64,000 bases of DNA from an archaeon. Its GTDB lineage: Archaea; B1Sed10-29; WALL01; JAGHAM01. This document shows, piece by piece, positions 1,067 through 40,232 of this stretch (position 1 is the stretch's first letter; every line of letters begins with the position of its first letter). The stretch is taken from NCBI GenBank assembly GCA_021107635.1, contig JAIOSL010000007.1, positions 36,188 through 100,187 on the forward strand, read 5' to 3'. Made by a program: the position numbers and the translations under genes. The notes beneath the pieces were generated by a model. It ran no database searches, was not told where the DNA came from, and worked only from the letters and a program-made list of their open reading frames with translations.

Positions 1067-2968
1067 ATGGTGGTCTCCATGAAGAAAATTTTATTGTTAT
1101 TGTTCTTGTTTTCAGGTGCGTTTGCATTAGTGCCTTCAACGCCAACATCTAATTATTCTTTTTCAGAACTTTCTTTGGATGTTGATAGTACTGGAAGTTT
1201 TACTCTTAAAGGAAGTTTTAATGTTGTTCCTAGTGTGAATGACACGAAAATTTATGTTGTTGGTCCTAATGAAGCGCTTCATGTGTTTTCGTCTTCTCCA
1301 GAATTGTATTTTGATGAGAATGGTTATTTCTTTTTTTCTGGTGAGAGCGGTTCTATTGAAGTAAATGGCAAGTTGGTTTTTGAGCAGAGTACTGTTTTGT
1401 CTTTTATTGCTCCTATAATGTGGTTGGATATTGATACTTCTACTTATTCAGATAATTTCTTTTCTATAACTAACAAGCAAGTAACCATATACAAATATCA
1501 GCATAAACCAGCAGAACAACATATTATTCCAACTTACAACATTTTTCTTGAAGAGTTTGGACGGGCAACGTTTGCTTATTTAATAGATGTTAAGAATCCT
1601 GGTCAAGAAGTTCGCATGAATTTGAATAATGATGAGACTGTTAATTCGGTTCAAGGAGCACGATATAAGATTGTTGGAAAAGAATTAGTTATCTATCCTG
1701 AAAGCAATAACCGAATAAGAGTCTATGGAAGCCTTCCTAGCGTTAACTTTTCTTTCAAACCTGGTTTAGGTGTTCCTGGGTATGTTGTTGTGCAGTATCC
1801 AAGCGGTTTTGAAGTTTTTACTTCAGGTGCATCACATGTTGATGAATCAAAAGTTAATGGAGTTGAGTATCGTTATAACAATAAGGTTTGTTTCGAAAGT
1901 TATCCTTCATCAGTTATTTCTATTACTGCCATAGAATTAGATTCTTTTCCAAGTCTAGTGTTTGCAGTGGATGATGTTGGAAACACTGTGTCCATATCTG
2001 AAAACGGAGTCATAATTCAAAACACTGAGTTTAGGTTCAGTAACACTGGCGTAGAATATACTTCTTTTGATGTAAATGATCTTGAACCCCTATATGCTTC
2101 AATTAATGGTCAGGCAACGTTCTTAACAAAGAAAGATGACAAAATTTATTTAGCAGTCCCAAAAGGTACTTCTCAAAGAGCAGATTTAATAACTTTAGAT
2201 AAAAAGCAAGAATTGTTCCCAGCAACTATGATAGACCTGGAAGTACCGAGAATAGACCATACAATTTCATCTTTCAGCAGTACTGTATACTATCCAAACA
2301 ATTATGAAGTCATGTATTCTTCTCATGGAACTAGGTTTGGTTGGGAAGGGTTCATTTTTGTTATCCTAATCTTTACTGGATTCTTGTATATTGTAGTTCC
2401 AGGAAACGGAAAAGCAAGATTCTTGACTGCCATTCTACTCTCTCTAGGAATACACCTGTTGACTATGGTTTCAGGACTGTTCTTCCTGTTTGCGCTGGTA
2501 GGCTATGCGTATGCATTATACAAGAAATACAAAAACTCAATCAAATTTGAAAAGAACACCCGTAACATAATCATAGCAGCAGTAATCGGATTAATAGTAA
2601 TAGGAGCAGTTTTCGGAACAATAATCCTACTTGCATCAACCTTCTTCACTCGCTACAGCGCGCCAGCACAAATGAATTCATATGCTGAGGGGGGAATAGC
2701 AAGAGCTCCACTAGAAAAAACTATGAGTGCGGGAGATTGGGCTGTTCCAAGCGATGAAATTGGTTTGGTAACAGAAAAAGAGATATTGCCAGTTAAACTG
2801 TCTCTCCCACGATACTCTAACAGCTTACGCATGACTCACTACATGGTAACCAAAGACAAGCCACTCCAAGTCCAAATGTTGTTAGTTCATACTTGGCTGG
2901 TCAAAATAGCATATGCAATCATTGGACTGATTTTGCTAGGATTTGCTTGGAAAAGAGTGCGTTCCTAG
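1067..2968 (+). CDS. Large secreted/surface protein with an N-terminal signal peptide and C-terminal multi-TM anchor. Function unknown.
   Basis: The first ATG codons are at 1067 and 1079 (MVVSMKKILLLLFLFSGAFALVPS). The N-terminal part of the listed ORF (905..) would overlap abce1, so it is rejected. A long beta-rich ectodomain is followed by several hydrophobic helices near the C-terminus. Confidence 0.6.
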   Translation: MVVSMKKILLLLFLFSGAFALVPSTPTSNYSFSELSLDVDSTGSFTLKGSFNVVPSVNDTKIYVVGPNEALHVFSSSPELYFDENGYFFFSGESGSIEVNGKLVFEQSTVLSFIAPIMWLDIDTSTYSDNFFSITNKQVTIYKYQHKPAEQHIIPTYNIFLEEFGRATFAYLIDVKNPGQEVRMNLNNDETVNSVQGARYKIVGKELVIYPESNNRIRVYGSLPSVNFSFKPGLGVPGYVVVQYPSGFEVFTSGASHVDESKVNGVEYRYNNKVCFESYPSSVISITAIELDSFPSLVFAVDDVGNTVSISENGVIIQNTEFRFSNTGVEYTSFDVNDLEPLYASINGQATFLTKKDDKIYLAVPKGTSQRADLITLDKKQELFPATMIDLEVPRIDHTISSFSSTVYYPNNYEVMYSSHGTRFGWEGFIFVILIFTGFLYIVVPGNGKARFLTAILLSLGIHLLTMVSGLFFLFALVGYAYALYKKYKNSIKFEKNTRNIIIAAVIGLIVIGAVFGTIILLASTFFTRYSAPAQMNSYAEGGIARAPLEKTMSAGDWAVPSDEIGLVTEKEILPVKLSLPRYSNSLRMTHYMVTKDKPLQVQMLLVHTWLVKIAYAIIGLILLGFAWKRVRS

Positions 2969-3009: not shown

Positions 3010-4044
3010 ATGAAAGTACTTAAAAAAGCACTCAAGGAAGGATTGTTAGTAGTAGTGCCATCAAGTGTTGATGACCTTTGGCACTTAGATAAAATCTTGG
3101 AAAAAGGAGATTTAATTAGTGCTAGCACTACCCGCAAATTTGTAAGCGAAAGCGGAAGATCAGAACGAAAAGACGTGCGCGTGGTAATTTCCTTAGAATC
3201 CACTGAATTTGATCCTCATACAGAACGCCTCCACTTGCTAGGCGTGATAAAAGAAGGCCGTCCTGAAAAATACGTTAGCTTAGGCGCGCATCAGTCTGTG
3301 GATGTTAATCCTGGCATAAAAATTGGAGTGCGTAAACATTGGAAAAAGCATCAATTGCATAGAATTCAGGAAGCAGTGAAATCTTCTGGAAAACCAAAAT
3401 TGTATGTTTTGGCTTTGGATGATGAAGAAGCATGTATTGCTTTGTTGCTTGATTCTGGGATTAAGAAGAAAGCATTAATCAAGTCTGGAAGAAGCGGTAA
3501 ACAATATAAAACTAATTCTAAACAAGGAGATTACTTCACTGAGATTTTAGAAGCACTAGAAAGCATGGAAATACATAAAATTGTTGTTGTAGGGCCTGGT
3601 TTTGTCAAAGATGAGTTCAAAGAATTTTCCGTGGAACACAATAAAGCGTTAGCGAAGAAAATGAGTGTTGAAGGAGCTGGTTCCGGAGGAGAATCAGGAG
3701 TCCGAGATGCTCTCAAGCTTGGAGTAATCGAGCGCATTGCAGCAGATTCAAAGCTTTCCCAGGAAACGCTTCTAGTTGAAGATGTGCTCACGGAGATTGC
3801 TCGGAATGGTCTTGCTGCGTATGGTTTGAAAGAGGTTGAGCAGGCATTGGATTGCAATGCAGTGGACAAACTTTTGCTTTCAGACACTATTTTTCAGAAA
3901 GCCCGGAATAAAGCAGAAGTTTTAATGGATAAAGCAGAAAAAGCGCGTGCAGAAACTCATATTGTTAATTCAGAAGAGGAGCCTGGGAAGAAATTAGATG
4001 CTTTAGGTGGAGTGGCTGCGTTGCTCAGATTTAAGGTTTGTTAA
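3010..4044 (+). CDS. pelA: Pelota / aPelota (Dom34 homolog), a ribosome rescue factor.
   Basis: 344 aa with an eRF1-like three-domain pattern. Very typical N-terminus MKVLKKALKEGLLVVVPSSVDDLWHLDKIL. It lies near the ABCE1 gene. Confidence 0.88.
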   Translation: MKVLKKALKEGLLVVVPSSVDDLWHLDKILEKGDLISASTTRKFVSESGRSERKDVRVVISLESTEFDPHTERLHLLGVIKEGRPEKYVSLGAHQSVDVNPGIKIGVRKHWKKHQLHRIQEAVKSSGKPKLYVLALDDEEACIALLLDSGIKKKALIKSGRSGKQYKTNSKQGDYFTEILEALESMEIHKIVVVGPGFVKDEFKEFSVEHNKALAKKMSVEGAGSGGESGVRDALKLGVIERIAADSKLSQETLLVEDVLTEIARNGLAAYGLKEVEQALDCNAVDKLLLSDTIFQKARNKAEVLMDKAEKARAETHIVNSEEEPGKKLDALGGVAALLRFKVC

Positions 4045-4718
4045 CCAAAGAAGCCTGGTTTTTTTGGTTTTCTTCTTAACGTTTCTTGCTTTTCTTTCAT
4101 CTTAAAGTTCTTAAAATTATGTTTTGGCTGTGTTTTGTTCCTGTTATGTGTCCCTATTTTTTTGATAATGAAAATTACTATCAAAACAAAGGTTGAGAAA
4201 AGTATCAGAAACATCATGATTGGCATAAAAACAAATATGAGCATGAGGATTAGTGCAAAACTATTCATGTCTACTGGTTCTTCTTCTTTAACTTCTATTT
4301 CTGACCAGTCTAGATAACAGTTATCTGTTTCAAGTTTAACGTAACGGTATTTTTTTGAGACATATTCACTATCAGTGCATTTTTCATTGTCTTCGCATTC
4401 TTTTGTTGTTCCTTCTCTCTCCCAATTTTGAGTATCGTTCGAAACGTAGATATCAAGCCGGTCTTCGCAAGTTCTTCCCCGGTTGTTTCCTAGCTTGAAT
4501 TGAATTTTTATTCTTGTTTGATTGTCTGTTATCTCTCCTAAATCATGAATGTGTGCTTTCTGATCACAACAGCAACAGTCTTGTTTTTGGCAGCTTGGTT
4601 GACTTCTTCCTGGTATAGAATAACCGATTCCATTATCACATTCTTCTTTTATCGGCTCGGCTTGAGAAAAACTTAGTAAAAAGAGGGTAAGCATTATCAG
4701 CAGTAATGTCTTCTTCAT
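4041..4718 (-). CDS. Cysteine-rich secreted protein with an N-terminal signal peptide and C-terminal TM anchor. Hypothetical.
   Basis: 225 aa. Signal peptide MKKTLLLIMLTLFLLSFSQA, then many Cys including CCCC, then a hydrophobic helix and a basic tail. Confidence 0.55.
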   Translation of the reverse strand: MKKTLLLIMLTLFLLSFSQAEPIKEECDNGIGYSIPGRSQPSCQKQDCCCCDQKAHIHDLGEITDNQTRIKIQFKLGNNRGRTCEDRLDIYVSNDTQNWEREGTTKECEDNEKCTDSEYVSKKYRYVKLETDNCYLDWSEIEVKEEEPVDMNSFALILMLIFVFMPIMMFLILFSTFVLIVIFIIKKIGTHNRNKTQPKHNFKNFKMKEKQETLRRKPKKPGFFG

Positions 4719-9242: not shown

Positions 9243-10556
9243 ATGAAAGTTCTTCTAATTGGAAATGGAGCAAGAGAACATTGCATGGCAGAAGCACTAG
9301 CAAAAGATAGTACTGTTTTTGCTTTCATGAAAGCTAAGAACCCTGGCATAGCAAAAATTTCAGAGAAAGTTCAATTAGGTTCACTAATTGATTTTGAATT
9401 AATCAAAGAATTCGCAGAACAAGTAACTCCTGACTTCATACTTGTAGGTCCTGAAAATCCATTAGCAGAAGGATTCGTTGATGTAATAACTGAGTTTCCT
9501 GTAGTTGGACCAGATAAGACGCTGGCTAACCTAGAATCAGACAAAGGATTCTGCAGAGAACTTTTGAAAAGACACAATGTTCCAGGGAACATTGAATTTC
9601 AATCTTGTACTTCTTTTGAAGAAGTAGAAGAAGCCTTGGATTGCATCCAAAATCCTGTAGTCAAAGCAGCAGGTTTGGCTGGCGGAAAAGGAGTTAAAGT
9701 AATGGGAGAACACTTGCATAGCATAAGTGAAGCTAAAGCTTATGCAAAACAAATTTTAGATTGTGAAGTAGGACTCACTCCAAGAGTAATAATTGAAGAA
9801 AAACTTGAAGGAGAGGAATTTTCACTGCAAGCGTTTGTTGATGGTAACAAAGTTGTGGCTATGCCTTTAGTTCAAGACCACAAATATGCTTACGATGGAG
9901 ACAAAGGCCCGTTGACTGGTGGTATGGGATCATATTCAGCAGCAAATCATTTGCTTCCATTTTTATCAGAACATGACAAAAGACAAGCTCTTGGAATCAT
10001 GCAAGCTACTGTCGACGCACTGAAAAAAGACACTTGGAAAGGATACAAAGGAGTGTTGTATGGGGGCTTCATGCTAACTACAGACGGCGTGAAACTCTTA
10101 GAATACAATGTGCGTTTCGGAGACCCAGAAGCAATGAACGTCTTGCCAATAATGGAAAACTCTTTTTCTGAAGTATGTATGGATATCATCGAAGGCGATC
10201 TAGAGAGCATTGACTTCCAGCATAAAGCCACGGTCTGCAAGTATGTTGTTCCAGAAGGATATCCAGATAATCCCGTGAACAACCAGAAAATAGAAGTAAA
10301 CTCAGAATGCGCAAACACCTACTATGCTTCAGTGGATCAGCGCGATGATGGCTTGTACATGTCTTCTTCTAGGGCAGTAGCGTTCGTAGGAATCGCAGAC
10401 ACAATCGGAGAAGCAGAGCAAGTTGCAGGCAGCGCGCTTAATGGAGTTAGTGGTCCTGTGTTTTATCGTAAGGATATTGGCACTAAACTTCTTGTAACCA
10501 AAAGAATAGAGCATATGCGATCTTTAGGCAAAGAATTGCCTGATGTAGAATTTTAG
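9243..10556 (+). CDS. purD: Phosphoribosylamine-glycine ligase (PurD, ATP-grasp).
   Basis: 437 aa. MKVLLIGNGAREHCMAEALAK...ATP-grasp core...GDPEAMNVLP. It follows purF after a 3-nt gap. Confidence 0.88.
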   Translation: MKVLLIGNGAREHCMAEALAKDSTVFAFMKAKNPGIAKISEKVQLGSLIDFELIKEFAEQVTPDFILVGPENPLAEGFVDVITEFPVVGPDKTLANLESDKGFCRELLKRHNVPGNIEFQSCTSFEEVEEALDCIQNPVVKAAGLAGGKGVKVMGEHLHSISEAKAYAKQILDCEVGLTPRVIIEEKLEGEEFSLQAFVDGNKVVAMPLVQDHKYAYDGDKGPLTGGMGSYSAANHLLPFLSEHDKRQALGIMQATVDALKKDTWKGYKGVLYGGFMLTTDGVKLLEYNVRFGDPEAMNVLPIMENSFSEVCMDIIEGDLESIDFQHKATVCKYVVPEGYPDNPVNNQKIEVNSECANTYYASVDQRDDGLYMSSSRAVAFVGIADTIGEAEQVAGSALNGVSGPVFYRKDIGTKLLVTKRIEHMRSLGKELPDVEF

Positions 10557-11647
10557 TATTTTATTTCAAATTCTTTTGATTCGATTTCGTACCAGTCTTC
10601 TTGTTCAAGGTCTCTTTTATATTTCATTACCATTTTGTATGTTCCTTCTGGTACCGGTTTGAATGGTTCTTCTTCTACATGATGATAAAATGTTTGCCCC
10701 CAAGACAGTTCAATGCTATCTTTTGCTGGAACTTCATAGCAATGGTATGGTTCATTATCCATTGAGCAGAGTTTGCCGGGTTCAAACGTGGTGAATTCCT
10801 GCCAATTGCCTTGGAACAACCAGTTAACCGTGAACGGATGTTTGTTACAGTTGGTCAAGCCATACGCAAAATAGCAGATTTGCTGGTCAAGGTTGTTGGT
10901 TAGTTTTATTGTAACAGTTTCGCCCATTCCGTAAACGTCTTTATTAGTGCTCAAGCCTACTGCAGGACCTGGAACTTCTTTTTCAATGCACGTACATGTG
11001 CCAAGTGGTAGTTCATTGTCACATTCCTGGCCTGCTAAACAATCTTCATCTGTTTTACATTCATCACTAGCAGTACATCCTGCTGGTTCTTCTTCAATGC
11101 ACTTGCAGGTTCCTTGTTCCACGTCATTATCACAATAGCCGGTTTCACAATCTGAATTACTTTCACATTCTGCTCCACATTCTTTAGAGCAATAAGCAGG
11201 TTCTAAAGTTCCAGTACAAGTGTTATCTTTGCATTCTATTCCTGCTTTGAATGGAGTCTCCGCTGATTCGCCTCCAATTTCGCTGGGTTGACAGAACTCA
11301 CAATCTTCAACAGTTTCACAATAATTAGAAAGTTCTGTTTTTTCTTTACAAAAACAAGCGTTGCAGTCCTTTCCTTCTGAGCATTCTGGCATACCATTAC
11401 CACATTCTGCTCCACAGGCTTCCACACAAGTTTGAATAAGACTTGTTTGACACTGGCCGTTTTTACATTCTCCTGGCTGGCCAAAACCAGAGCCAGGTGC
11501 AGTACATAAAGCATATGAGGTGCACTCAGAATCAGATGAACAGGAGTTACTTTTTTGTAATCCTGGTAAACTCACTGCTATTAAAATAATTATTATTGCT
11601 ATGAATGCTAGAACAGCTATTCCTGCGTACAATTTTTTTTCTTTCAT
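10553..11647 (-). CDS. Cysteine-rich secreted protein with repeated EGF-like Cys spacing. Hypothetical.
   Basis: 364 aa. N-terminal TM/signal MKEKKLYAGIAVLAFIAIIIILIAV, then about 40 Cys in repeated CxxxC / CxC modules (CKCIEEEPAGCTASDECKTDEDCLAGQEC...), then a Cys-free C-terminal beta-rich domain. Confidence 0.6.
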   Translation of the reverse strand: MKEKKLYAGIAVLAFIAIIIILIAVSLPGLQKSNSCSSDSECTSYALCTAPGSGFGQPGECKNGQCQTSLIQTCVEACGAECGNGMPECSEGKDCNACFCKEKTELSNYCETVEDCEFCQPSEIGGESAETPFKAGIECKDNTCTGTLEPAYCSKECGAECESNSDCETGYCDNDVEQGTCKCIEEEPAGCTASDECKTDEDCLAGQECDNELPLGTCTCIEKEVPGPAVGLSTNKDVYGMGETVTIKLTNNLDQQICYFAYGLTNCNKHPFTVNWLFQGNWQEFTTFEPGKLCSMDNEPYHCYEVPAKDSIELSWGQTFYHHVEEEPFKPVPEGTYKMVMKYKRDLEQEDWYEIESKEFEIKY

Positions 11648-26443: not shown

Positions 26444-28354
26444 ATGGGGGCAAAAAACACTTTACTCACTCTGCTGATTTTACTTTCATCAGCTTCTGCT
26501 TTATCACTAACTGTGAACACACCATCAAATGGAGAATACTTCAACATTCAAGAAATAAGTTTTTCTGTTAATGCAGAAACAAATATCACTGCAGTAACAA
26601 TCTCAATAAATGACACTAATGAAGCAATGCAAACCACAGACAACACTACTTGGACATACACTACTACCCTATCTGATGGCTACTGGAGCACAACTTTTGA
26701 AGCAACAAACGGTACTGAAAATATTACAGAAACAATAACCTTTTACGTTGATACTATCTCACCAGCAATAACAATCCTATCTCCAGAAAATTCTTCGTAC
26801 ACAGAAACACAACTCAATTTTACCTATCAAGACATAAACCTTGATTCCTGCTTTTACAGTCTCAACGAAAACACAAACCAAACTATCTCATCTAATGGAA
26901 CTGTTTTCTCCGAATCAGGCACACACCACATTGAATTATGGTGTGAAGATCTTGCAAGCAATCAAGGATACGCTCAACAATGGTTTACCATAGAAGAACA
27001 AAACACTAACCAAGCACCATCAATAACAATAGTCAATCCTTCTGGTGGAACACACCAAGATATGGACGAATTCACAGTCAAAGCAACAGATGACACTGAA
27101 ACAAGCATTGATTGTAAATATCAATTAGATTCAGAAGGATGGACCAGCTTTAATCTCAATAACAACACCGAAAAGACTCTAACTTTAGATTATATCGACT
27201 CAGATGGTTCCCATACCATATATGTTAACTGCTCAGATGGCAATCTAACGAGTCAAACTTCTCGATCTTTCACAATAGACACAGAGCCACCAACAGATGT
27301 AACAATAGAAATCAACGATGGAGACGCAGAAACTGATTCAAAAGAAGTAACTCTCACCCTACACGCTTCCGGCGCAAACAAATGCAGACTAAGTGAAGAT
27401 GAAGACGATTGGACTGACTGGAAAACATCAAAGAACGAAGATTACGATTATACTCTTTCAAGTGGAACTGGCAGAAAAACCGTTTACTATCAATGTAAAG
27501 ACAGTGTAGGAAATGACATAACAAGCTATGATTCAATAGAATACACTTTATGTGGTAACGGAAAACTAGATGATGGCGAAGAATGTGATGGAAGTAGGGT
27601 ACGCTTAGGATACATCTGTTCTTCTGATTGTAAAGGTTCATACAAAGATCCAAATTATGAAACAGAAATTTCTCCTCCATCTAACTCTTATGATTCACGA
27701 TCTTATCCAGTTTCACTCAAACCAACAGCAGATAATACAAGCAGTGTCTTCAAAAAAATGTTCAACAACTCAGCTGAAATTTACGAGCTATCCCAGCAAG
27801 CAATCAATGATTTAAAACTTTCTGCTACCATCAAAAAAGAAGAATATCCTTTAATCTCGCTTACTGGAACCTATTCTGGAAATCAAACTCTAGAAAATTT
27901 GATAATCATATTTAAACTTCCAGAAAGCTTTGCTTCTTCATCAGATGACGTAGAAGTAATTACTGCAGCTGAAGTTGAAACACTTAAAGAACTGCTTTAC
28001 TCAGTAAATTTCAAAAACATTAAAAAAGGCGGTTCCTTCTCAGCAACATTCACTGCCAGTCAAAACGGAGACCTAATTGAAATAAAGAATGACATAGAAC
28101 ATCCCACGATACTAGCAAAAATAACTCAAACAGAAACACCTGAACTACTACAAATCCCAACTCAACCAGAAACAACTTCTATTCAGGCAACAGAAAACCA
28201 GACAGAAGAACTTGAACAAGATATGTCTCTTGTAACCGGTGCAATAGTTCTAGGAAGTGCAACTCTATTAGTGCTTGGTTTAGTAATAGTGGTCTTGCTT
28301 GCAGTTGTAGTATTTTTCCTTTCACGCAGAAAGCGTTCCGGGGCAAGAATGTAA
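26444..28354 (+). CDS. Large surface protein. Signal peptide, Thr/Asn-rich ectodomain with many N-x-S/T sequons, C-terminal TM anchor plus basic tail.
   Basis: 636 aa. MGAKNTLLTLLILLSSASA signal peptide. More than 25 NxT/NxS sites. A CGNGKLDDGEECDG module. C-terminus LVLGLVIVVLLAVVVFFLSRRKRSGARM. Confidence 0.6.
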   Translation: MGAKNTLLTLLILLSSASALSLTVNTPSNGEYFNIQEISFSVNAETNITAVTISINDTNEAMQTTDNTTWTYTTTLSDGYWSTTFEATNGTENITETITFYVDTISPAITILSPENSSYTETQLNFTYQDINLDSCFYSLNENTNQTISSNGTVFSESGTHHIELWCEDLASNQGYAQQWFTIEEQNTNQAPSITIVNPSGGTHQDMDEFTVKATDDTETSIDCKYQLDSEGWTSFNLNNNTEKTLTLDYIDSDGSHTIYVNCSDGNLTSQTSRSFTIDTEPPTDVTIEINDGDAETDSKEVTLTLHASGANKCRLSEDEDDWTDWKTSKNEDYDYTLSSGTGRKTVYYQCKDSVGNDITSYDSIEYTLCGNGKLDDGEECDGSRVRLGYICSSDCKGSYKDPNYETEISPPSNSYDSRSYPVSLKPTADNTSSVFKKMFNNSAEIYELSQQAINDLKLSATIKKEEYPLISLTGTYSGNQTLENLIIIFKLPESFASSSDDVEVITAAEVETLKELLYSVNFKNIKKGGSFSATFTASQNGDLIEIKNDIEHPTILAKITQTETPELLQIPTQPETTSIQATENQTEELEQDMSLVTGAIVLGSATLLVLGLVIVVLLAVVVFFLSRRKRSGARM

Positions 28355-31366: not shown

Positions 31367-31651
31367 ATGCAACTAAGAAGAATTTTAATTGACGTGCTCA
31401 AACCGCATGACCCTTCAATCATAGTCTATGCTGAAAAACTTGCAGCTCTGAAATGTGTTGATGGTGTGAACATACTAGTCGTAGAAATCGATGACAAGAC
31501 AGAGAGCATAGGTGTTACCATTGAAGGCGGTTCTTTAAACTTTAATTCAATAGAAAAAGTAATTGAAAAACTTGGCGGTTCAATTCACTCCGTAGACATG
31601 GTTTCTGCAGGCTCTCATGTAGTAGAAGCAGCAAGCGAAGAGAGCGGTTAA
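31367..31651 (+). CDS. Conserved small archaeal protein (DUF211/COG1888-like).
   Basis: 94 aa. LRRILIDVLKPHDPSIIVYAEKL...VNILVVEIDDKTESIGVTIEG. It is paired with the downstream membrane protein. Confidence 0.55.
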   Translation: MQLRRILIDVLKPHDPSIIVYAEKLAALKCVDGVNILVVEIDDKTESIGVTIEGGSLNFNSIEKVIEKLGGSIHSVDMVSAGSHVVEAASEESG

Positions 31652-31654
31652 AAA

Positions 31655-32173
31655 ATGATGAACAATTTTGTCAGAGGATTCATAGATGGATCTCTTTCAA
31701 CTCTAGGAGTTCTAATAGGCGCATCTGCTGGAGATACCAGTATTATTCTTTCTGCAGGGTTAGGCGGTACACTAGCTAATGGAGTCTCAAACATGCTAGG
31801 AGCATTCTCCGCGGAAAAAGCCAAACAATACGGTGAACTAAGACAAGTAGAAAAAGCAATGGTTGCAACCAACCTAAAAGATTCCATTCTAGATCAAAGA
31901 ATTGGACCAGAAATCAAAAAAGCAGGTGTTATAGATGGAATAGCCACAATCATTGGCGGCATCATTCCAATAATCCCCTTTTTTCTAATGCACCCAGCTC
32001 AAGCAACTCTAGTCGCAATAGGAACCGTGCTTCTACTATTAGTTATTCTAGGAGTATACCTAGGAAAAATTTCAAAAGAAAACATTATTTTATCAGCAAT
32101 AAAAATGGTCGTGTTAGGTATTGTTATCGCTTTACTCTCTTTTGGAGTACAATACATTTTCACTCCCGTATGA
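31655..32173 (+). CDS. VIT1/CCC1-like (DUF125) small membrane protein.
   Basis: 172 aa. FIDGSLSTLGVLIGASAGDTSIILSAGLGGTLANGVSNMLGAFSAEKAK, followed by TM helices. Confidence 0.55.
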   Translation: MMNNFVRGFIDGSLSTLGVLIGASAGDTSIILSAGLGGTLANGVSNMLGAFSAEKAKQYGELRQVEKAMVATNLKDSILDQRIGPEIKKAGVIDGIATIIGGIIPIIPFFLMHPAQATLVAIGTVLLLLVILGVYLGKISKENIILSAIKMVVLGIVIALLSFGVQYIFTPV

Positions 32174-32203
32174 CATTTAAATAAAGTCCATTCTAATATA
32201 CTC

Positions 32204-32989
32204 ATGGAAGTAGAACTAGACTTAACAAAAAGCATTCCAGAAAATGCTGCTCTTTACTACGAACAATCAAAAAAATCCAAGAAAAAACTAGAAGGACTAA
32301 GAGAAGCAATCCAAAAAACCAAGAAAGAACTAACCCTAAAACAAGAAAAAGCAGAAGAAATTGCCAAACAAACACGAAAAAAGAAACGAGAACGCGAATG
32401 GTACGAAAAATACCACTGGTTTTTTACCACTCAAGGACTGCTTGTACTTGCAGGAAGAGATGTTAAATCCAATCAAGAAATCGTAAAAAAACACATGCAA
32501 AGCAACGACTTATACTTTCACGCAGACATTCACGGTGCACCATCAACAGTAATCCAATCTGAAAGTAAACAAATCAATGAAAAAAGCAAAGAACAAGCAG
32601 CAGCATTTGCAGGCACTTACTCCAAAGCATTTTCTGCAGGACTTGAAACAGTTGACGTATATTCTGTTGAACCAAACCAAGTTAAAACCGCAGCCAAAAG
32701 CGGTGAATTCCTGCCTAAAGGCGGATTTGTAATACTAGGACAACGCGAATGGTACAAAAAAACACCAGTGCGCGCAGCTGTATCCTATGATCCAAAAAAA
32801 GCACGTCCTATTGTAGGGCCTCCAGATTCAATCAAAAGCAAATCTCTAGTGATTGCCCCAGGCAGAAACAGTAAAGGAGAAATCGCTAAAAAAGCTAAAG
32901 CCTTCCTAGAAAGAGAATTTAATACAGAAATATCCTTAGATGAAATAATTCAACTATTACCTACTGGTGGCGGAAGAGTGCTAAAATGA
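32204..32989 (+). CDS. NFACT-R (DUF814) domain protein (Tae2/NEMF-related RNA-binding domain).
   Basis: 261 aa. A coiled-coil N-terminus, then YHWFFTTQGLLVLAGRDVKSNQEIVKKHMQSNDLYFHADIHGAPSTVI. Confidence 0.6.
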   Translation: MEVELDLTKSIPENAALYYEQSKKSKKKLEGLREAIQKTKKELTLKQEKAEEIAKQTRKKKREREWYEKYHWFFTTQGLLVLAGRDVKSNQEIVKKHMQSNDLYFHADIHGAPSTVIQSESKQINEKSKEQAAAFAGTYSKAFSAGLETVDVYSVEPNQVKTAAKSGEFLPKGGFVILGQREWYKKTPVRAAVSYDPKKARPIVGPPDSIKSKSLVIAPGRNSKGEIAKKAKAFLEREFNTEISLDEIIQLLPTGGGRVLK

Positions 32990-33162
32990 AAAGTTTTTTT
33001 GAAATGATAAACGACTGGAACTTTGCGCTTGCTTTAATAGCAGCGTTTTTAATTGCAGGATATGACCTTGCTTACGGAACAAAAATAATTGGAACAATAT
33101 TCTTATTTCTCATAATGGGAGCAATAGCTCTAAACATTTGGAAGACCCGCAAAAAAAGCTAG
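32986..33162 (+). CDS. 58-aa two-TM membrane micro-protein, below the ORF-track length cutoff.
   Basis: An ATGA overlap with the upstream stop (ATG 32986, TGA 32987-89). Product MKSFFEMINDWNFALALIAAFLIAGYDLAYGTKIIGTIFLFLIMGAIALNIWKTRKKS. Confidence 0.4.
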   Translation: MKSFFEMINDWNFALALIAAFLIAGYDLAYGTKIIGTIFLFLIMGAIALNIWKTRKKS

Positions 33163-33425
33163 TTTCTACCCATTTGTCTTTCTTGACTCCTAGAAAAACC
33201 TTTAGACTTCAACTCTTCCGGAGCAATTTGCGCGCGCCAATAATTGTCAAATTGATCTGTTACAACAAGATCTATCTTTTGGCCGAGCATTTCTTTACCA
33301 AAAGCTTTCAAGTACTGTTGTGTAGGAGCATGATTCTTATCTAACAAAATAATTGGACTCCCAAATGCGTGTATTATGTAACCTCCTTCTCTACCTACTT
33401 TTAAAACACCACTCATTTCATACAT
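33159..33425 (-). CDS. Small soluble protein, hypothetical (possible beta-barrel nucleic-acid-binding fold).
   Basis: 88 aa ORF. It forms a compact unit with radB upstream. No recognisable motif. Confidence 0.4.
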   Translation of the reverse strand: MYEMSGVLKVGREGGYIIHAFGSPIILLDKNHAPTQQYLKAFGKEMLGQKIDLVVTDQFDNYWRAQIAPEELKSKGFSRSQERQMGRN

Positions 33426-33440
33426 ACAATCACTCTCTTT

Positions 33441-34085
33441 TCAAACTATTCCTTGTTCGGCAATATTAAAATTCTTTTCCTTACCTGACTCTACAAACAA
33501 ATGCTTAATCAATTTTGCTTTCCTTTCCGGTTTCAACTCAAGCACTATCTTAGAACCATACTTAAGCGTGTCTCCACCAACTGGTTCAACCCTGCCAGTA
33601 TCAATACTAGTATACACTTGATTAGTGACAAGTACTGCCAAATCTTTTTTTCTTGACAATTCAAGCAAATCAGCCAGCTGTCTGCCAAGCACTCTACTAG
33701 AACTCCTAGGCTTATCCTGATCCATCTCCAAACGATAATGATAAACAATAGAATCCACAACAACCAAACCAACATCTTTGTACCTAACTAAATCCTTAAT
33801 CATTTGTCCCTGTTCGCGCATGCTTGCAGGTTCCAATAAATACGTGTTGTCAAGCACTTGTTGCTTTTTTTCTCCTGCAATCTGACCTAACCGTTCTTCT
33901 GAAAAACCGCTCTCAGAATCAATAAACACGACTTTCTTTCCCATTTTAACAGCGTTTACAGTAGCTTGTAACGCAATGTTTGTTTTACCAGAACCAGGAG
34001 GTCCATAAACCTGAGTAATCTTTTTAATATGCAAGCCTCCTCCCAGAAGTTCATCTAAAATACACTCAAGTGGAACAAAGTTCAT
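33441..34085 (-). CDS. radB: DNA repair/recombination protein RadB (short RadA paralog).
   Basis: 214 aa. ILDELLGGGLHIKKITQVYGPPGSGKTNIALQ (Walker A), with no N-terminal HhH domain. Confidence 0.85.
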   Translation of the reverse strand: MNFVPLECILDELLGGGLHIKKITQVYGPPGSGKTNIALQATVNAVKMGKKVVFIDSESGFSEERLGQIAGEKKQQVLDNTYLLEPASMREQGQMIKDLVRYKDVGLVVVDSIVYHYRLEMDQDKPRSSSRVLGRQLADLLELSRKKDLAVLVTNQVYTSIDTGRVEPVGGDTLKYGSKIVLELKPERKAKLIKHLFVESGKEKNFNIAEQGIV

Positions 34086-34151
34086 AATAACGTTTTATAT
34101 ATGTATTTTCTCTAATTTATTGCTTGTTTTCCAACTCAAAGGTGTTTTTTA

Positions 34152-36317
34152 ATGGATGATCAAAAACTTAAAGTGCAAGAAGCTCTTCAAAACGATGTAG
34201 GGAGAGGTATAATCCGCTTAGACAGTTCAATTCGAGATCAATTGAAGCTCACGTCCGGCGATATAGTTAAAATAAAAGGCAAAAAAAATACTGCTGGCAT
34301 TGTTTGGCAGAGTTATCCCGAAGATGATGGTCTTGGAATCGCAAGAATGGATGGAATAATGAGGCAGAATGCAGGAGTATCCATTGGAGATCATATTATA
34401 ATAGAAAAAGCTTCCCCAAAACCAGCTAAAAAAGTTGTACTTGCACCAACACAAGCAGTGCGTTTCTCACCAGGCTTCAACAACTATATCCAAAAAAGAC
34501 TTATTGGCAGGCCACTTACAAAAAGAGAAAAGCTGCTCGTAGGAATATTTGGTGCTTCAGTAGTAATGGTTGTAACTAACATTGTGCCAGGAGGTATAGT
34601 CCAAATCACAAGAGATACTCAACTAGAAGTTAGAACAGAACCCGTAAAAGAAATCACTGGCTTACCCCAAGTAACTTACGAAGATATTGGTGGCGTAAGA
34701 GACGAAGTCCAAAAAGTCAGAGAAATGATAGAAATCCCAATGAAACACCCCGAACTGTTCAAGCGTTTGGGAATCGACCCACCAAAAGGAGTTCTTTTAC
34801 ATGGACCACCAGGAACAGGCAAAACATTACTCGCAAAAGCCGTTGCAAACGAGAGTATCGCAAATTTCATTTCCATCCAAGGCCCAGAAATCATGAGCAA
34901 ATTCGTCGGTGAAGCAGAAGAACGTCTACGCAAAGTCTTCCAAGAAGCAGAAAAAAACGCTCCGACAATCATTTTCATAGACGAACTTGATGCAATTGCA
35001 CCAAAAAGAGAAGAAGTTTCCGGAGAAGTCGAACGCAGAGTAGTCGCACAAATGCTTACACTAATGGACGGTCTCCAAGCAAGAGGACAAGTCGTTGTAA
35101 TAGGAGCGACAAACAGAGTTAACGCATTAGATCCTGCCTTACGCAGACCAGGAAGGTTCGACAGAGAAATTGAAATAGGCGTGCCAGATCGCAAAGGCAG
35201 AAAAGAAATTCTTCAGATACACACAAGAAACATGCCAAAAAACAAGGACGTGAGCCTAGACGAATTAGCGGACGTAACTCATGGTTTTGTTGGTGCAGAC
35301 CTAGAAGCACTAGCTAAAGAATCAGCAATGAAAGCACTCAGGAGAGTAATTCCAAAAATGGATTTGGAAGAAGATGAAGGAATTCCTCCAGAAGTATTAG
35401 AAAAACTTGAAGTCACAAGAAGGGACTTCAGAGAAGCCCTAAAAGAAGTTCAACCATCTGCACTGCGAGAAGTCCTAGTTGAAATACCAAACGTTAAATG
35501 GGCTGATGTTGGCGGATTGGACAACGTGAAAAATGATCTGAAGGAAGCTATTGAATGGCCTCTTAAACATCCAGACCGGTTCAGACGTATCGGAATCAGA
35601 CCACCACGTGGCATATTCCTTTTCGGTCCGCCAGGAACAGGCAAAACATTAATGGCACAAGCTGTAGCTAACGAAAGCGATGCAAATTTCATTTCAGTAA
35701 AAGGGCCTGAACTATTATCCAAATGGGTTGGCGAATCAGAAAAAGCAGTAAGAGAAATATTCCGCAAGGCCAGACAAGCCGCACCAGTAATCATCTTTTT
35801 CGACGAAATCGATGCACTCGCACCAGCAAGAGGAGCAAATATTGGCTCACATGTCACTGAAACAGTAGTCAACCAACTGCTCACAGAACTGGATGGAGTC
35901 GAAGACTTGAAAGACGTAGTTGTACTAGCAGCATCCAACCGGCCAGAGCTAGTAGATCCAAGCTTGTTAAGACCCGGTCGATTCGATAGACTCATTCCGA
36001 TTCCAGTACCCGATGAAAAAGGCAGGCTAGAAATACTAGAGGTCCATACTAAAGACGTGCCACTGGATAAAGACGTTAACCTGAAAGATTTAGCCAAACG
36101 TTCAATTAACTTTTCAGGAGCAGACATTTCTGCTTTAGTCAGAGAAGCTGGAATGACTGCACTACGAAAAAATCCAGACACTAAAAAAGTCACTAAAAAA
36201 GATTTTGAAGCAGCACTGCGTGTCATAAAACCGTCAATTATTGAATCAGAAATAGAAAAATATCAGAAATTTCATCAAGAATTCGGAGACAAGGCAGACA
36301 CAAGCTACATTGGTTAA
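34152..36317 (+). CDS. cdc48: Cdc48/VCP-like AAA+ ATPase (double D1/D2).
   Basis: 721 aa. N-domain. Two Walker A motifs ([17 protein letters not shown] and [17 protein letters not shown]). Two second-region-of-homology segments. Confidence 0.92.
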
Positions 36318-36943
36318 ATACCTAATAGCATTGCAAGCACTTCAAGAATGCGACCCAAGAAAAATGTTAGTGAACCCGCTAAAATAATTGCTACAAGCCA
36401 GGCAGTCGGGTTCCATTGCATTACCTTACTTCCATCTAATGGAGGGAACGGAATCAGGTTAAAGAATCCTAGGAAAAAGTTTACCATTGATCCAATCAAA
36501 CCTAAGTCAAACAAAAAATCGCCCTGTCTTAAACCAATAGAAGCACAATAAAGAAGCAATCCAACAAATGAAAGTCCAACTAAAATGTTAACAAGTGGTC
36601 CAGCTAAAGAAATTTTCCCATTCTCTTCAGGAGTTAATTGCTTACCACCAATATACACAGCTCCTGGAGCAGCAAACAAAAACTGCCCTCTTGTTAGTAT
36701 TGCCATTCCTAATGCAAGAACCAAACCCCAACTCCAAGCCCGGAACACTGCCCAACAACCATATCTTCTGGCAACATACCTGTGAGCCATTTCATGGAAA
36801 ATAAAACCAGTTCCCAAACCTATCAACACAAGCGGAAATCTTGTTAAAAAACTTGGCAAGCCAACATAAGCAGCATTCACGGAAAAAGCAATGCTAAGTG
36901 TAATCCAAGATATTAACAAATGAGTTAATTCTGTTTTATCCAT
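36314..36943 (-). CDS. M50-family (site-2 protease-like) intramembrane metalloprotease.
   Basis: 209 aa. HExxH inside a TM helix ([16 protein letters not shown]), followed by LDG (PLDGSKV). Confidence 0.8.
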
Positions 36944-37042
36944 CGGCGCAACTTTTCTTTTTCCAAGTTTTTAACACTTGCGGACAAAGCATTAAATATT
37001 TTTGAATTCATAATGAAACCAGAACTTTAAAGGGGGGAGGAA

Positions 37043-37222
37043 ATGAGTTTGCTCAGAGAGGAGAGCGCTCAAGTATCTGCAGAATTAATCATAGTAATAG
37101 CAGCAGTACTTGCAGTAGCAGTAATTTTAGTCAAACAATTACGCGACACAGCACAAGACGGATCCAAAAAAATGTCAGAAAAAAGCAAGAAAGTGCTCTC
37201 TGAAATTGATAAAATAAAGTGA
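37043..37222 (+). CDS. 59-aa pilin-like protein with a class III (type IV pilin-type) signal peptide, below the ORF-track cutoff.
   Basis: MSLLREESAQVSAELIIVIAAVLAVAVILVKQLRDTAQDGSKKMSEKSKKVLSEIDKIK. It has the Q-V-S-x-E + hydrophobic helix pattern. Confidence 0.5.
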   Translation: MSLLREESAQVSAELIIVIAAVLAVAVILVKQLRDTAQDGSKKMSEKSKKVLSEIDKIK

Positions 37223-37227
37223 CTTTG

Positions 37228-37596
37228 ATGAAAGGGCAAGTGTCTCTAGAAATGTTAATAGTCATGCTCATGTTCTTAGCAGCGCTAGCATTATGGCTAG
37301 AAGGTATGTCCAACCTAACAAACGCAACAAACAAAAATCTTGACGCGCACGCCAACAAAATAGCAGCAGACCGACTAGCAAGCACAGCAAACAGCCTTTG
37401 CTTAATGGGAAAAGGCAATCAACGTGAATTGCACCTATTCTTCCCAAAAAACACTAGCATACTATACAATGACAGTCTCTGGATTGGAAGTTTTCAGCGT
37501 GACACCTACTGTCCTGTAAATGTAAATTTTCAAGCTTCTGGAAGTGTTCAAATAAAAGCAGTAAACAACGGTTCAATCATACTCCAGCTACTATAA
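37228..37596 (+). CDS. Archaeal type IV pilin-like protein with a class III signal peptide.
   Basis: The ATG at 37228 gives MKGQVSLEMLIVMLMFLAALALWL, the canonical KGQ|VS.E prepilin cleavage context. The listed ORF start at 37219 is a GTG. Confidence 0.65.
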   Translation: MKGQVSLEMLIVMLMFLAALALWLEGMSNLTNATNKNLDAHANKIAADRLASTANSLCLMGKGNQRELHLFFPKNTSILYNDSLWIGSFQRDTYCPVNVNFQASGSVQIKAVNNGSIILQLL

Positions 37597-37933
37597 CAAC
37601 GCGCTCATACTCTTCTGTTACTAGCGTGCGTTCGATTCTTGCTATTGGTTTGAATTCCTGTTCCAGAATTGCTTTTTCGTTCACGTACACAGAAGCTTTA
37701 ATTCCCAAACTAGAAAGTAACACTTTCATGTGTTCAGTGTCGCCAGTTTCCAACGAACCATCCTTCAATGCTACCTCAAGAAAATCACTAGCTTGCTTGT
37801 AAACAATCACATCGCTCAATTCATCTTGTGAATGAAAAGAAAGCATGTACACAAAAACTAAGCAAGCTAACAGAGAAACCATCGCTTCTAACGTAAACGC
37901 AAAACCTTTACCAGACTTCCAAAATACGTTCAT
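37577..37933 (-). CDS. Pilin-like small protein (class III-like signal peptide).
   Basis: MNVFWKSGKGFAFTLEAMVSLLACLVFVYML... Confidence 0.5.
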   Translation of the reverse strand: MNVFWKSGKGFAFTLEAMVSLLACLVFVYMLSFHSQDELSDVIVYKQASDFLEVALKDGSLETGDTEHMKVLLSSLGIKASVYVNEKAILEQEFKPIARIERTLVTEEYERVVIVAGV

Positions 37934-38270
37934 TTTTTTTGTTCACCTCTCCAACAAAAACCAGCCTGCGCACAATAATACCCTCTGCTTTTGACTCCTC
38001 TCCAAGCTTCAACAAAGAAACATTGAAATGTGTTTCTTTTGGAAGAACGCCCAAAGTTTGCGGAATCACAGATTTACATTCTTCATCATACAAACCATGC
38101 CTGTTAATCAACTCATCCGAAAAAACAATTCGCTCATGCTGAGCTTTAGCGTATTCAACCATGCTCACACTTGACTGCACTGACAAAAATACGCTTGTGA
38201 TAGACAACTGAACCATAACTAAAACGAGTATCGCAGCCACTCCTACGTCAAGCTCTATCAACGAAACCAC
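37908..38270 (-). CDS. Small protein with an N-terminal hydrophobic helix (pilin-like minor subunit?).
   Basis: MVSLIELDVGVAAILVLVMVQLSITSVFL... It overlaps its neighbours by 13-26 nt. Confidence 0.45.
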   Translation of the reverse strand: MVSLIELDVGVAAILVLVMVQLSITSVFLSVQSSVSMVEYAKAQHERIVFSDELINRHGLYDEECKSVIPQTLGVLPKETHFNVSLLKLGEESKAEGIIVRRLVFVGEVNKKNERILEVW

Positions 38271-38452
38271 CGAGTAAAATTAGATTCTACGTTCCTAGAC
38301 TTACCAAAAGCAAGGGAAGGCTCGCTAAATTCTAACTCAAGTTCAGGCAACTCAAACGATCCAATCTGAGCTTGTACTAACACACCCACAAAAACAAGAA
38401 AGCCTAACAACAACACTAAAAACTCTAACGATACCTGCGCTTTACAATTCAT
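38258..38452 (-). CDS. Tiny pilin-like protein with a class III signal peptide.
   Basis: MNCKAQVSLEFLVLLLGFLVFVGVLV (KAQ|VSLE). Confidence 0.45.
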   Translation of the reverse strand: MNCKAQVSLEFLVLLLGFLVFVGVLVQAQIGSFELPELELEFSEPSLAFGKSRNVESNFTRWFR

Positions 38453-38840
38453 GCGAACACCCCACAGGAATCAAAAACACGCTACTAGCATTTCCAGCAA
38501 CAAAACTCGCGCTTAACGCTTTATAAGGATCTGTGTCATACTTTAATTCAAGCGTCAACCCTCCAGGAGACTTTTCTAGAAAATCCTTTGGATTACCCTC
38601 CACAGAAATGCCCTGCTCTTCCATCAAAGCACTCCAATCACCCAAATCAATTCCTTTAACAGAACTCGCCCAAAAAGTATGCTCAAACTCATGTTCCTGA
38701 TTAGTAAGCGTTTGTTGTTCCAACAATTTCACACGCGCCAAAGCAACACATTCCACTGCTCTTGCATGCAAACTAACAGAGTATAAAACAGTAGGAATGA
38801 ACACAACTACAACTAAGAAACTAAACAATCCTCTCCTCAT
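38442..38840 (-). CDS. Small N-terminally anchored protein, first gene of the minus-strand pilin-like unit.
   Basis: MRRGLFSFLVVVVFIPTVLYSV..., 132 aa. Confidence 0.45.
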   Translation of the reverse strand: MRRGLFSFLVVVVFIPTVLYSVSLHARAVECVALARVKLLEQQTLTNQEHEFEHTFWASSVKGIDLGDWSALMEEQGISVEGNPKDFLEKSPGGLTLELKYDTDPYKALSASFVAGNASSVFLIPVGCSHEL

Positions 38841-38942
38841 TCTCTCCCCCCGTTAGATGCCAGTCATTATGAAAAAACAGGTTTTTATATGTTTAGAAAA
38901 CCTATTCTCTTTTTAAAGGGAACTTTTCATAATTGAGACCCA

Positions 38943-39728
38943 ATGGCTGAGTTGAGGAAACTAAAAGAAGAACGCGACAATCTCAACGAAGAAGCTCGTA
39001 CTCTTATCAAGCAGGGAAAAGAAACTACTGTGCGTGTAAAGAGACTAAGAGCGGAGCTCAGAGAGTTCAAGACAAGTCGGGACGAGGAAAACGCGAAAGT
39101 CAGAGAGTTCAAAGAAAAGCGTGACGCAGTGAACGCGAAAATTCGAACTAGAATCAACAAAATAAACAAAATTCAAGAAGAAATTCGTGGCCTCAAGGGG
39201 GAACTGGACATGCCCTTCCATGAAGCTCGCAAACAACTAGAGCGTCTGGAATGGAAGGTCCAAACAGAGGTAATGAACGTCAGGCAAGAAGAAAAAATAG
39301 TCAGAAAAATCGAAGAACTTGAAGAAGCAACCAAATCAACCAAAGAATTTATGGGCAAAAGAAAAGATTTGGAAAAAATCAAAAAAGAACTTGATGAGCT
39401 CCGTAAAGAAGCCCAAGCATTCCACGAAGTAATGCTAGAACACACACGCAAAAGTGAATATTATCACCAAAAAATGCTTGAACTTTATAAAAACTTGAAA
39501 GCTTTAGAACCAGACTTCAAAGACATCAGTGATAAAATAACAAAAGCCAAGAAAAAAGCAGATAAAGCACACAAACATTACATCGACAACTACAAAGAAA
39601 CCAAAGGAAAAACAGAAAAAGATGTAAAAGAATCAATGAAAAAGAAAGCAGACAAGCTGATGGAAGGATTCAAGAAAGGCAAGAAGCTTACAACAGACGA
39701 ACTTCAAATAATCCAGCATTTCGGTTAA
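38943..39728 (+). CDS. Lys/Glu-rich coiled-coil protein (archaeal COG1340-like).
   Basis: 261 aa, nearly all heptad coiled coil (ELRKLKEERDNLNEEARTLIKQGKE...). Confidence 0.6.
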   Translation: MAELRKLKEERDNLNEEARTLIKQGKETTVRVKRLRAELREFKTSRDEENAKVREFKEKRDAVNAKIRTRINKINKIQEEIRGLKGELDMPFHEARKQLERLEWKVQTEVMNVRQEEKIVRKIEELEEATKSTKEFMGKRKDLEKIKKELDELRKEAQAFHEVMLEHTRKSEYYHQKMLELYKNLKALEPDFKDISDKITKAKKKADKAHKHYIDNYKETKGKTEKDVKESMKKKADKLMEGFKKGKKLTTDELQIIQHFG

Positions 39729-39935
39729 GCTTTTTTCCCTATGTGACTTCTATACATTCCCACATGATATCGGTATAGCTAATTCTAAGGAAATTTCAGT
39801 TGAAGTGTAATCTCTATATCTAAAACAGTCCTGCATCGATCGGCCCGTGATTCACGCGCTATCGTTACCTAACATTCAAAGCAAACCCTCTGACTTAAGC
39901 AAAACCTTTATATTCCAAGGATTCGTTATCCAATC

Positions 39936-40232
39936 ATGGACGAAGAGGAGATAGCCTATAAAATTGTAGAGCTATACGCCAAAGAAGTCGCAGACCCACA
40001 AGAAAAAAGAAGAATGGGACTAGACACACTGCTTAATGCCTATTTCTATTCACTGTTGCGTCTAACGCGCAAGAAAAAAGAAATGGAAGCCTTCGACAAA
40101 GCTATAACAGCAGAAGAACAATACCTAGCACAAGAAGAACCAATGGAAAAAAAAGATGAAGAAACCATCCCAAAAATGGAATCGGCTCCACTCAAACCAG
40201 CACAACCAGGAGAAGAATTCAAGTTTGACTAA
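39936..40232 (+). CDS. Acidic 98-aa hypothetical protein.
   Basis: ORF with a 4-nt convergent overlap with the GTPase gene. No motif recognised. Confidence 0.35.
   Translation: MDEEEIAYKIVELYAKEVADPQEKRRMGLDTLLNAYFYSLLRLTRKKKEMEAFDKAITAEEQYLAQEEPMEKKDEETIPKMESAPLKPAQPGEEFKFD

Follow-up and report, generated by a model that had tools for sequence, protein, structure and literature searches.

In Methanococcus maripaludis, pilins of the DUF361 type carry leaders of 5–13 amino acids (aa) that end in Gly and are followed by Gln at position +1 (possibly required by the prepilin peptidase EppA) and Glu at +5; the major pilin, MMP1685, has 74 aa (62 aa when mature), four minor pilins are essential, and the Epd pilin genes occupy four or more loci apart from the genes for the ATPase and the platform protein (PMC3875500). 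Major pilins of clade 1 measure ∼70 aa, their genes usually stand alone, and each system includes five or more minor pilins (PMC4858521). The main Epd (system 1) pilin lacks a globular domain, like bacterial Flp; archaeal Epd-like systems are the presumed ancestors of bacterial Tad pili, and system 1 occurs in DPANN archaea (bioRxiv 10.64898/2026.04.22.720090). The micrarchaeon Mia14 has a clade-1 type IV pilus (T4P) locus and one FlaK-like peptidase (PMC5498576). Here we describe six small genes, designated A to F, within a 64-kb stretch of contig JAIOSL010000007.1 (64,000 nucleotides, hereafter the window) from an archaeon whose closest named relatives are Candidatus Iainarchaeum and Diapherotrites metagenome-assembled genomes (MAGs) of the DPANN group. 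NCBI annotates proteins of the cluster as “hypothetical protein” (K8R43_01120, K8R43_01125, and K8R43_01130). We consider it likely that this tiny, symbiotic-type DPANN archaeon, which stands near Iainarchaeota, uses the six genes to make subunits for a surface appendage like a type IV pilus, of the Epd or system 1 kind.

Results

Class III signals are concentrated in the six genes

A first-pass annotation of the window had placed six pilin-like open reading frames (ORFs) at 37033–38840. All six are present with the N-termini that it quoted, in two convergent units, A-B and F-E-D-C (Table 1). It had put two of the genes below a 60-aa cutoff, and this applies to A alone (59 aa), E being 64 aa long. 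We scanned the whole window in six frames for start-to-stop ORFs carrying the strict motif [GA]/x3-4E (the slash marks the cleavage site) followed by a 15-residue hydrophobic stretch. Among 1,870 such ORFs, the motif was matched by A, B, C, and E and by one antisense junk ORF inside the Lon gene, and by nothing else; a looser, FlaFind-like rule picked out B, C, E, and F and one internal start. Because the window-wide scan matches almost solely these genes, the clustering of class III signals in the window is far beyond chance. Signal-peptide rules of the FlaFind style had been suggested as a check by the first-pass annotation; between them, the two rules pick out A, B, C, E, and F of the cluster, F by the looser rule. 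Its count of six class III signal peptides holds for four genes, in which the signal is canonical, namely A (SA/QVSAE), B (KG/QVSLE), E (KA/QVSLE), and C (KG/FAFTLE); F has no Glu at +5 (Glu5), and D is leaderless in this lineage.

In five of the six proteins, a very short leader whose last residue is Gly or Ala precedes a hydrophobic segment of 20 residues or more, and the mean Kyte–Doolittle value over the 15–20 residues after the cleavage site is 2.0–3.6 in A, B, C, E, and F. The N-terminus of D is also hydrophobic (VGVAAILVLVMVQLSITSVFLSV). The combination of Lys or Arg at −2 with Gly or Ala at −1 is fully present in B (MKG/Q), C (SGKG/F), E (CKA/Q), and F (MRRG/L). With respect to the acidic residue at +5, which is typical of bacterial and Epd pilins and is not universal in archaea, Glu occupies this position in A, B, and E and, when counted after the initiator Met, in D; C has Glu at +6. 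Further, A, B, and E carry Q+1, S+3, and E+5, the signature of PF04021/DUF361 pilins, and these three residues are invariant in alignments of the 18 A homologs found and of 15 B orthologs. In their short leaders, which close with Gly or Ala, and in having Gln at +1 and Glu at +5, A, B, and E resemble the Epd pili of M. maripaludis.

Family matches and the likeness of A to Epd and Flp major pilins

When compared with the Pfam family PF04021 (Class_IIIsignal; DUF361/UPF0333), E, A, and B scored 22.6, 15.6, and 13.7 bits, respectively, and did not reach the gathering threshold of 23.7. Matches at E ≤ 0.05 were obtained with 16 of the 18 A homologs (best 2.9e-7) and 8 of 15 B homologs (best 1.1e-5), several A and B homologs already carry precomputed PF04021 annotations, and one A homolog has been named “class III signal peptide-containing protein” by NCBI. 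Gene A also showed a weak match to Flp1_like (16.1 bits against a cut-off of 33.5 bits). Profile–profile comparison (hhalign) of the N-terminal module related E to B with 95% and E to A with 89% probability, C being marginal; among the six proteins, only the N-termini of A, B, and E were related by this test, and D and F displayed no similarity to the others.

Mature A (∼50 aa) consists of a 22-residue hydrophobic helix and a Lys/Glu-rich tail, with no globular domain. It thereby resembles the tiny major pilin of the Epd system (59 aa, ∼50 mature, for A; 74 aa, 62 mature, for MMP1685) as well as the short subunit of bacterial Tad/Flp pili (∼50–60 aa), which is likewise essentially the N-terminal helix alone. 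Unlike MMP1685, however, A has no N-glycosylation sequon, and unlike bacterial Flp, it has Leu rather than Tyr at +6, matches neither Flp_Fap nor TadE in Pfam, and comes from an archaeon. Of the six, A is by far the most conserved, being 93, 75, 71, 67, 59, and 52% identical to its counterparts in relatives; the corresponding identities of the other five proteins run from 65% down to 22%, and that of CDC48, encoded nearby, from 83% down to 62%. Because A is small, lacks a globular domain, and is far more conserved than B to F, it would be the major pilin of the set.

The six ORFs are real genes under purifying selection

An 8.6-kb ENA contig is 100% identical to the window at 31600–40177, and an independent automatic gene caller gives the same six genes there. 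Four relatives (loci L002, L003, L005, and L008) keep all six ORFs at 45–65% aa identity, with order, sizes, and overlaps unchanged, and a partial set is found in a Candidatus Iainarchaeum MAG (L004). In comparisons with relatives, nonsynonymous divergence (pN) was 0.07–0.40 and synonymous divergence (pS) 0.58–0.99 in every one of the six genes, synonymous sites being saturated; for A against L002, pS was 0.97 and pN 0.07. Because nonsynonymous change is far below synonymous change in each, all six ORFs are real genes under purifying selection.

These data bear on an alternative that the first-pass annotation had itself raised, namely that the overlapping minus-strand ORFs are a larger gene broken by frameshifts. 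Short overlaps between consecutive ORFs are the sole point that speaks for pieces of one gene, split by sequencing or assembly frameshifts or by pseudogenization. Against this, the four ORFs are the same in order, size, and overlap in relatives of 45–65% identity and in Micrarchaeota, every one of them has a hydrophobic N-terminal segment of its own, in each reading frame pN is much lower than pS, the independent assembly agrees across the whole 8.6 kb, and no slippery heptamer can be read at the E/D junction. We therefore regard a broken gene as next to impossible: a frameshifted or pseudogenized single gene is ruled out by the kept ORF structure together with the low pN relative to pS, and the alternative is refuted by the comparative data, the pN/pS contrast, and the identical independent assembly. 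A programmed frameshift from E into D was considered on account of the conserved tail of E (FGKSR..NFTRWFR), inside which D starts; it was rejected, as neither the window nor L002 has a slippery heptamer, and the overlap resembles ordinary translational coupling.

Organization of the minus-strand unit and features of its gene products

In the minus-strand unit, the neighbors F-E-D-C overlap by 11, 13, and 26 nucleotides (nt) (13 nt for D/E and 26 nt for D/C), and because of these overlaps of 11–26 nt, the sequence suggests that the four genes are translationally coupled. Four small pilin-like genes with overlapping frames in one operon are also found in the GspH-I-J-K, FimU-PilVWX, and ComGD-GG sets. 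Like the minor-pilin sets of type II secretion systems (T2SSs), T4P, and Com systems, F-E-D-C is encoded apart from the transcription unit of the major subunit, and F resembles cap subunits of the GspK/PilX type in lacking Glu5. The likeness to T2SS, T4P, and Com minor pilins is purely organizational, however, with no detectable homology of sequence or fold.

In F, the leader of 3–4 residues ends in Gly, and all seven F orthologs (7/7) start with M[RKEG]{0,2}[RK]G and a hydrophobic stretch, with Glu5 in none; a C-terminal motif, GN(A/S)S..FLIPxGCS, is conserved. In E, the middle is variable and the C-terminal tail, FGKSR-x4-NFTRWF[RK] (38258–38310), is almost invariant among Iainarchaeota-like relatives. 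The GTG start of D falls within the final codons of E, but because only the last 4 codons of E overlap D, the overlap does not appear to explain the conservation of the tail fully. In Iainarchaeota-like relatives, D starts with MVSLIE, MVQVME, or MVQVIE (pattern M-V-[SQ]-[LV]-[IM]-E), and D orthologs with a leader are encoded in L011 (SRKG/AMLSMD) and L023 (MKG/IFSVD). We note that removal of the initiator Met from D, in which the next residue is Val, would yield a pilin-like N-terminus without a prepilin peptidase. In a set of 1.84 billion proteins, the profile of the C family retrieved only 19 representatives, and one of these is spurious; the motifs [KR][GAS]/FxF[TS]xEA, YKQASD, and ERTLVT are common to the true members. 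The spurious one (P0027, E = 2.5e-15) is a eukaryotic-looking repeat protein of 2,671 aa whose score is the sum of 11 repeated weak stretches. Sequons are conserved among Iainarchaeota-like relatives in D (NVS), E (NFT), and F (N[AS]S), which fits with extracellular domains.

In the plus-strand unit, B has Cys at 58 and 95, five N-x-S/T sequons, and alternative starts at 37219 (GTG) and 37225 (TTG). The 3′ ends of the convergent genes B and C share 20 bp (37577–37596), and we note that a convergent B/C overlap of 17–50 bp is also kept in L002, L005, L008, and L009. Such a kept overlap suggests that antisense effects or transcriptional interference may be possible.

The organization of F-E-D-C has to be weighed against a different function, in which the class III-signal proteins build a short pseudopilus or a bindosome-like scaffold for secretion, for uptake (e.g. 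of host DNA or nutrients), or for anchoring of surface proteins. Models for such a structure are the T2SS pseudopilins and the class III-signal sugar-binding proteins of Sulfolobus. By analogy, four seemingly co-translated minor-pilin-like genes, one of them without Glu5, would mirror GspH-I-J-K and ComGD-GG; further, archaeal type IV filament machineries are known to have been repurposed for substrate binding (bioRxiv 10.64898/2026.04.22.720090), and DPANN archaea rely on host-derived molecules (PMC5498576). Yet A matches known major filament pilins (Epd and Flp) exactly in size and architecture, no substrate-binding or enzymatic domain is found in any of the six proteins with Pfam or NCBIfam, and no ABC transporter is linked to the cluster at any locus. 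We therefore think a scaffold of this kind unlikely and favor a filament.

The cluster recurs in two DPANN phyla within a conserved neighborhood

Searches anchored on A and B located the layout with A and B convergent to C, D, E, and F at ∼28 distinct loci in Iainarchaeota/Diapherotrites and Micrarchaeota, several of them in Candidatus Micrarchaeota MAGs. On contigs that are long enough, the recurring elements are a short A (A/QVSAELIIVIAAV), B ([RK][GAS]/Q[AV]S[LI]E), and the convergent set of C ([KR][GA]/FxF[TS]xEA), D, E (Q.SLE), and F (M[RK]xG followed by a hydrophobic stretch). Variants of the layout were also observed: in L011, a Cys-rich protein with a PSI domain is encoded between B and C, possibly an adhesin partner; in L035 and L036, two Micrarchaeota loci, a DUF116 gene lies between A and B; and in L013, the module is rearranged.

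The cluster is flanked by a block of housekeeping genes, in the order TopA, NFACT, RadB, CDC48, M50 protease, the cluster, DUF7121, an Obg-like GTPase, and the RFC large subunit, and this block is syntenic from TopA to the RFC large subunit between Iainarchaeota-like and Micrarchaeota loci. The DUF7121 protein shares 82% identity with its ortholog in L002 and thus surpasses the minor pilins in conservation. The trio of CDC48, M50, and A recurs in almost every related locus. Wherever upstream DNA suffices, L019 alone excepted, the M50 protease gene is the immediate neighbor of A, often in the same direction, with a spacing of 0–6 nt or an overlap (e.g. L016, L022, L023, and L030); it is inverted in the lineage of the window. 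In L019, the M50 gene is missing, and genes for a glycosyltransferase and a methyltransferase precede the pilin genes.

The proximity of the M50 gene could be taken to mean that the small membrane proteins, A above all, are substrates or regulators of the adjacent M50 protease and CDC48 rather than usual pilus subunits. BofA and SpoIVFA acting on SpoIVFB provide the model. The adjacency at all but one of the loci with enough upstream DNA, and the tight or overlapping co-directional arrangement with A in many of them, would agree with this. Given that the whole block from TopA to the RFC large subunit is syntenic across Iainarchaeota and Micrarchaeota, however, the adjacency may be inherited backbone order; moreover, the inverted M50 gene in the lineage of the window, the pilin genes of L019 that occur without it, the specificity of the Q+1/S+3/E+5 motif for substrates of A24 peptidases (PMC3875500), and our finding no literature link of site-2 proteases to pilins all speak for pilus subunits. 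We consider the M50-substrate explanation very improbable and, because the whole block is syntenic, a functional link between the M50 protease and the pilins unlikely. A combined view is that the module is an ancestral core-genome feature of Micrarchaeota and Iainarchaeota whose biogenesis is coupled to the M50 protease and possibly to CDC48, so that the protease may process, trim, or turn over subunits, and that D matures by removal of Met (exposing VSLIE). This view, which strikes us as quite improbable, would mean, if true, that the maturation of pilins does not depend wholly on the canonical A24 aspartyl peptidase.

No assembly machinery is encoded near the cluster

The first-pass annotation had reported no assembly ATPase, membrane platform, or prepilin peptidase nearby, and this holds for the 64-kb window as far as it was scanned. 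P-loops of the form GxxGxGK[ST] in the window belong to CDC48, Lon, two ABC proteins, RFC, and RadB, and to no others; the peptidase motif GxGD[hydrophobic]K is absent from the window; and the Pfam families T2SSE, T2SSF, and Peptidase_A24 had no match in the subset of window ORFs scanned, those encoding membrane proteins or proteins of no assigned family; NCBIfam scans of such ORFs were likewise negative for machinery. In relatives with readable flanks, none of the ATPase, platform, or A24 peptidase genes was found within 10 kb of the cluster. Because pilin genes and machinery are dispersed in M. maripaludis and system 1 has been reported in DPANN archaea, Micrarchaeota among them, a neighborhood free of machinery is not anomalous. 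The separation of pilin genes from the genes for ATPase and platform, and the several additional minor pilin genes (five more class III-like genes beside A), are again features shared with the Epd system. Unlike in M. maripaludis, where eppA sits with epdA-C, there is no EppA gene in the cluster.

Coordinates and other features

The coordinates of the six genes, their flanks, and the features that follow are collected in Table 1. The window also encodes four proteins that match no family and appear to be secreted or membrane-anchored; they are candidate surface or adhesion proteins of a kind typical of DPANN genomes.

Table 1. Coordinates of the pilin-like genes, their flanking regions, and further features of the window and of related loci; N-termini are given with the cleavage site as a slash.
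Feature	Locus	Coordinates	Strand	Size	Remarks
Gene A	Window	37043–37222	+	59 aa	N-terminus MSLLREESA/QVSAELIIVIAAVLAVAVILV, also written MSLLREESA/QVSAELIIVIAAV
Gene B	Window	37228–37596	+	122 aa	N-terminus MKG/QVSLEMLIV
Gene C	Window	37577–37933	−	118 aa	N-terminus MNVFWKSGKG/FAFTLEAMVSLL; last gene of the minus-strand operon
Gene D	Window	37908–38270	−	120 aa	GTG start; N-terminus M/VSLIELDVGVAAILVLVMV, also written M/VSLIELDVGVAAIL
Gene E	Window	38258–38452	−	64 aa	N-terminus MNCKA/QVSLEFLVLLLGFLV (QVSLEFLV)
Gene F	Window	38442–38840	−	132 aa	N-terminus MRRG/LFSFLVVVVFIPTVLY (LFSFLVVVVF); first gene of the minus-strand operon
Intergenic, M50 protease gene to A	Window	36944–37042			Putative promoter and ribosome-binding site, predicted from the sequence alone; TATA-like AT-rich box upstream of A at ∼36992–37003; Shine-Dalgarno-like run G6AGG at 37032–37040, 2 nt 5′ of the ATG of A
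Intergenic, F to divergent DUF7121 gene	Window	38841–38942			Candidate promoter and ribosome-binding site for F-E-D-C, likewise predicted; minus strand reads GGGGGGAGAGA immediately 5′ of the ATG of F; TATA-like AT-rich stretch at ∼38883–38892
M50 protease gene	Window	36314–36943	−	209 aa	Site-2-protease-like; HExxH (HEMAH) and PxxPLDG motifs
CDC48 gene	Window	34152–36317	+		On the far side of the M50 gene from A
DUF7121 gene	Window	38943–39728	+	261 aa	Coiled-coil protein on the F-side flank; same flank in L002, L005, L008, and L013
D ortholog	L002	2389–2751
D ortholog	L005	10878–11237
D ortholog	L008	10906–11268
PSI-domain protein	L011	2924–4234	−	436 aa	Cys-rich surface protein inserted between B and C
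DUF116 gene	L035	7746–8309	+		Between A and B
DUF116 gene	L036	9495–10004	+		Between A and B
Family-less protein	Window	10553–11647	−	364 aa	34 Cys
Family-less protein	Window	26444–28354	+	636 aa	Asn/Thr-rich; many sequons; C-terminal anchor
Family-less protein	Window	4041–4718	−	225 aa	Cys-rich
Family-less protein	Window	1079–2968	+	∼629 aa	Signal peptide; C-terminal transmembrane segments

Discussion

The first-pass reading of the cluster, a set of pilin-like subunits with machinery encoded elsewhere, is supported by the signal motifs, by the PF04021 matches, by the layout shared between two DPANN phyla, and by the precedent of M. maripaludis. We propose that the prepilins would insert into the membrane with the N-terminus inside and the C-terminus outside and that a membrane aspartyl prepilin peptidase of the EppA/FlaK/PibD type would cut the leader; an ATPase of the FlaI/PilB type and a platform protein of the TadC/FlaJ type, encoded elsewhere in the genome, would then extract and polymerize the subunits. 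Gene A would provide the major subunit, made up mostly of the polymerization helix and the Lys/Glu-rich tail, like the major pilin of M. maripaludis and bacterial Flp. The products of F, E, D, and C may form a stoichiometric minor-pilin complex for priming or at the tip, with F, for want of Glu5, as the putative distal cap by analogy to GspK and PilX, and B may be an extra pilin with a small glycosylated β domain. A likely role for such an appendage would be attachment to surfaces or to a host cell.

Several observations weigh against this proposal. None of the six proteins of the window reached a curated threshold in Pfam or NCBIfam, NCBIfam giving nothing meaningful, and C, D, and F matched no known family; sequence searches of the Protein Data Bank (PDB), for which A and profiles of B and F served as queries, returned no meaningful relatives. 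Compared with Epd pilins, the similarity is confined to the signal and helix region, with the window proteins below Pfam thresholds, and the families of C, D, and F have no detectable relatives beyond a few DPANN lineages. An AlphaFold2 model of B from an 8-sequence alignment has a helix at residues 7–60 (54 residues) followed by six strands (pLDDT 67 and pTM 0.43; the model from the single sequence was poor, with pLDDT 55). The predicted fold resembles the “lollipop” layout of pilins, a long N-terminal helix and then a six-stranded β domain, but confidence in the model is moderate, and a Foldseek search with it against the PDB gave no significant match and no match to a pilin. Two of the N-termini also depart from expectation: the leader of A (ESA/Q) has Ser at −2, a position taken by Lys or Arg in most relatives, and a stop codon lies 4 codons 5′ of the GTG of D, which hence has no leader in this lineage, unlike Epd pilins. 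Machinery was found neither in the 64-kb window nor near the clusters of relatives, and its presence elsewhere in the genome is assumed. Finally, we infer the major, minor, and cap roles from size, conservation, and analogy. Even so, we judge that a pilus-like appendage probably accounts for the six genes.

Overall, we conclude that the cluster is an unannotated pilin set of a well-known system type, not a new kind, and that it has been conserved, by vertical descent, in Iainarchaeota and Micrarchaeota. It leaves the current picture of type IV filaments unchanged; what stands out is that D lacks a leader and F lacks Glu5, that A is extremely conserved, and that M50 and CDC48 genes are near-constant neighbors. 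The lifestyle assumed for DPANN archaea is attachment to host cells, a contact for which pili are leading candidates, but DPANN pilins evolve so fast that annotation pipelines label them “hypothetical.” The cluster gives a concrete subunit set, with a short, presumably major pilin under strong constraint and five rapidly evolving partners, that can be used for genome annotation, for filament searches (cryo-electron tomography or proteomics of enrichments), and for evolutionary comparison from Epd to Tad.

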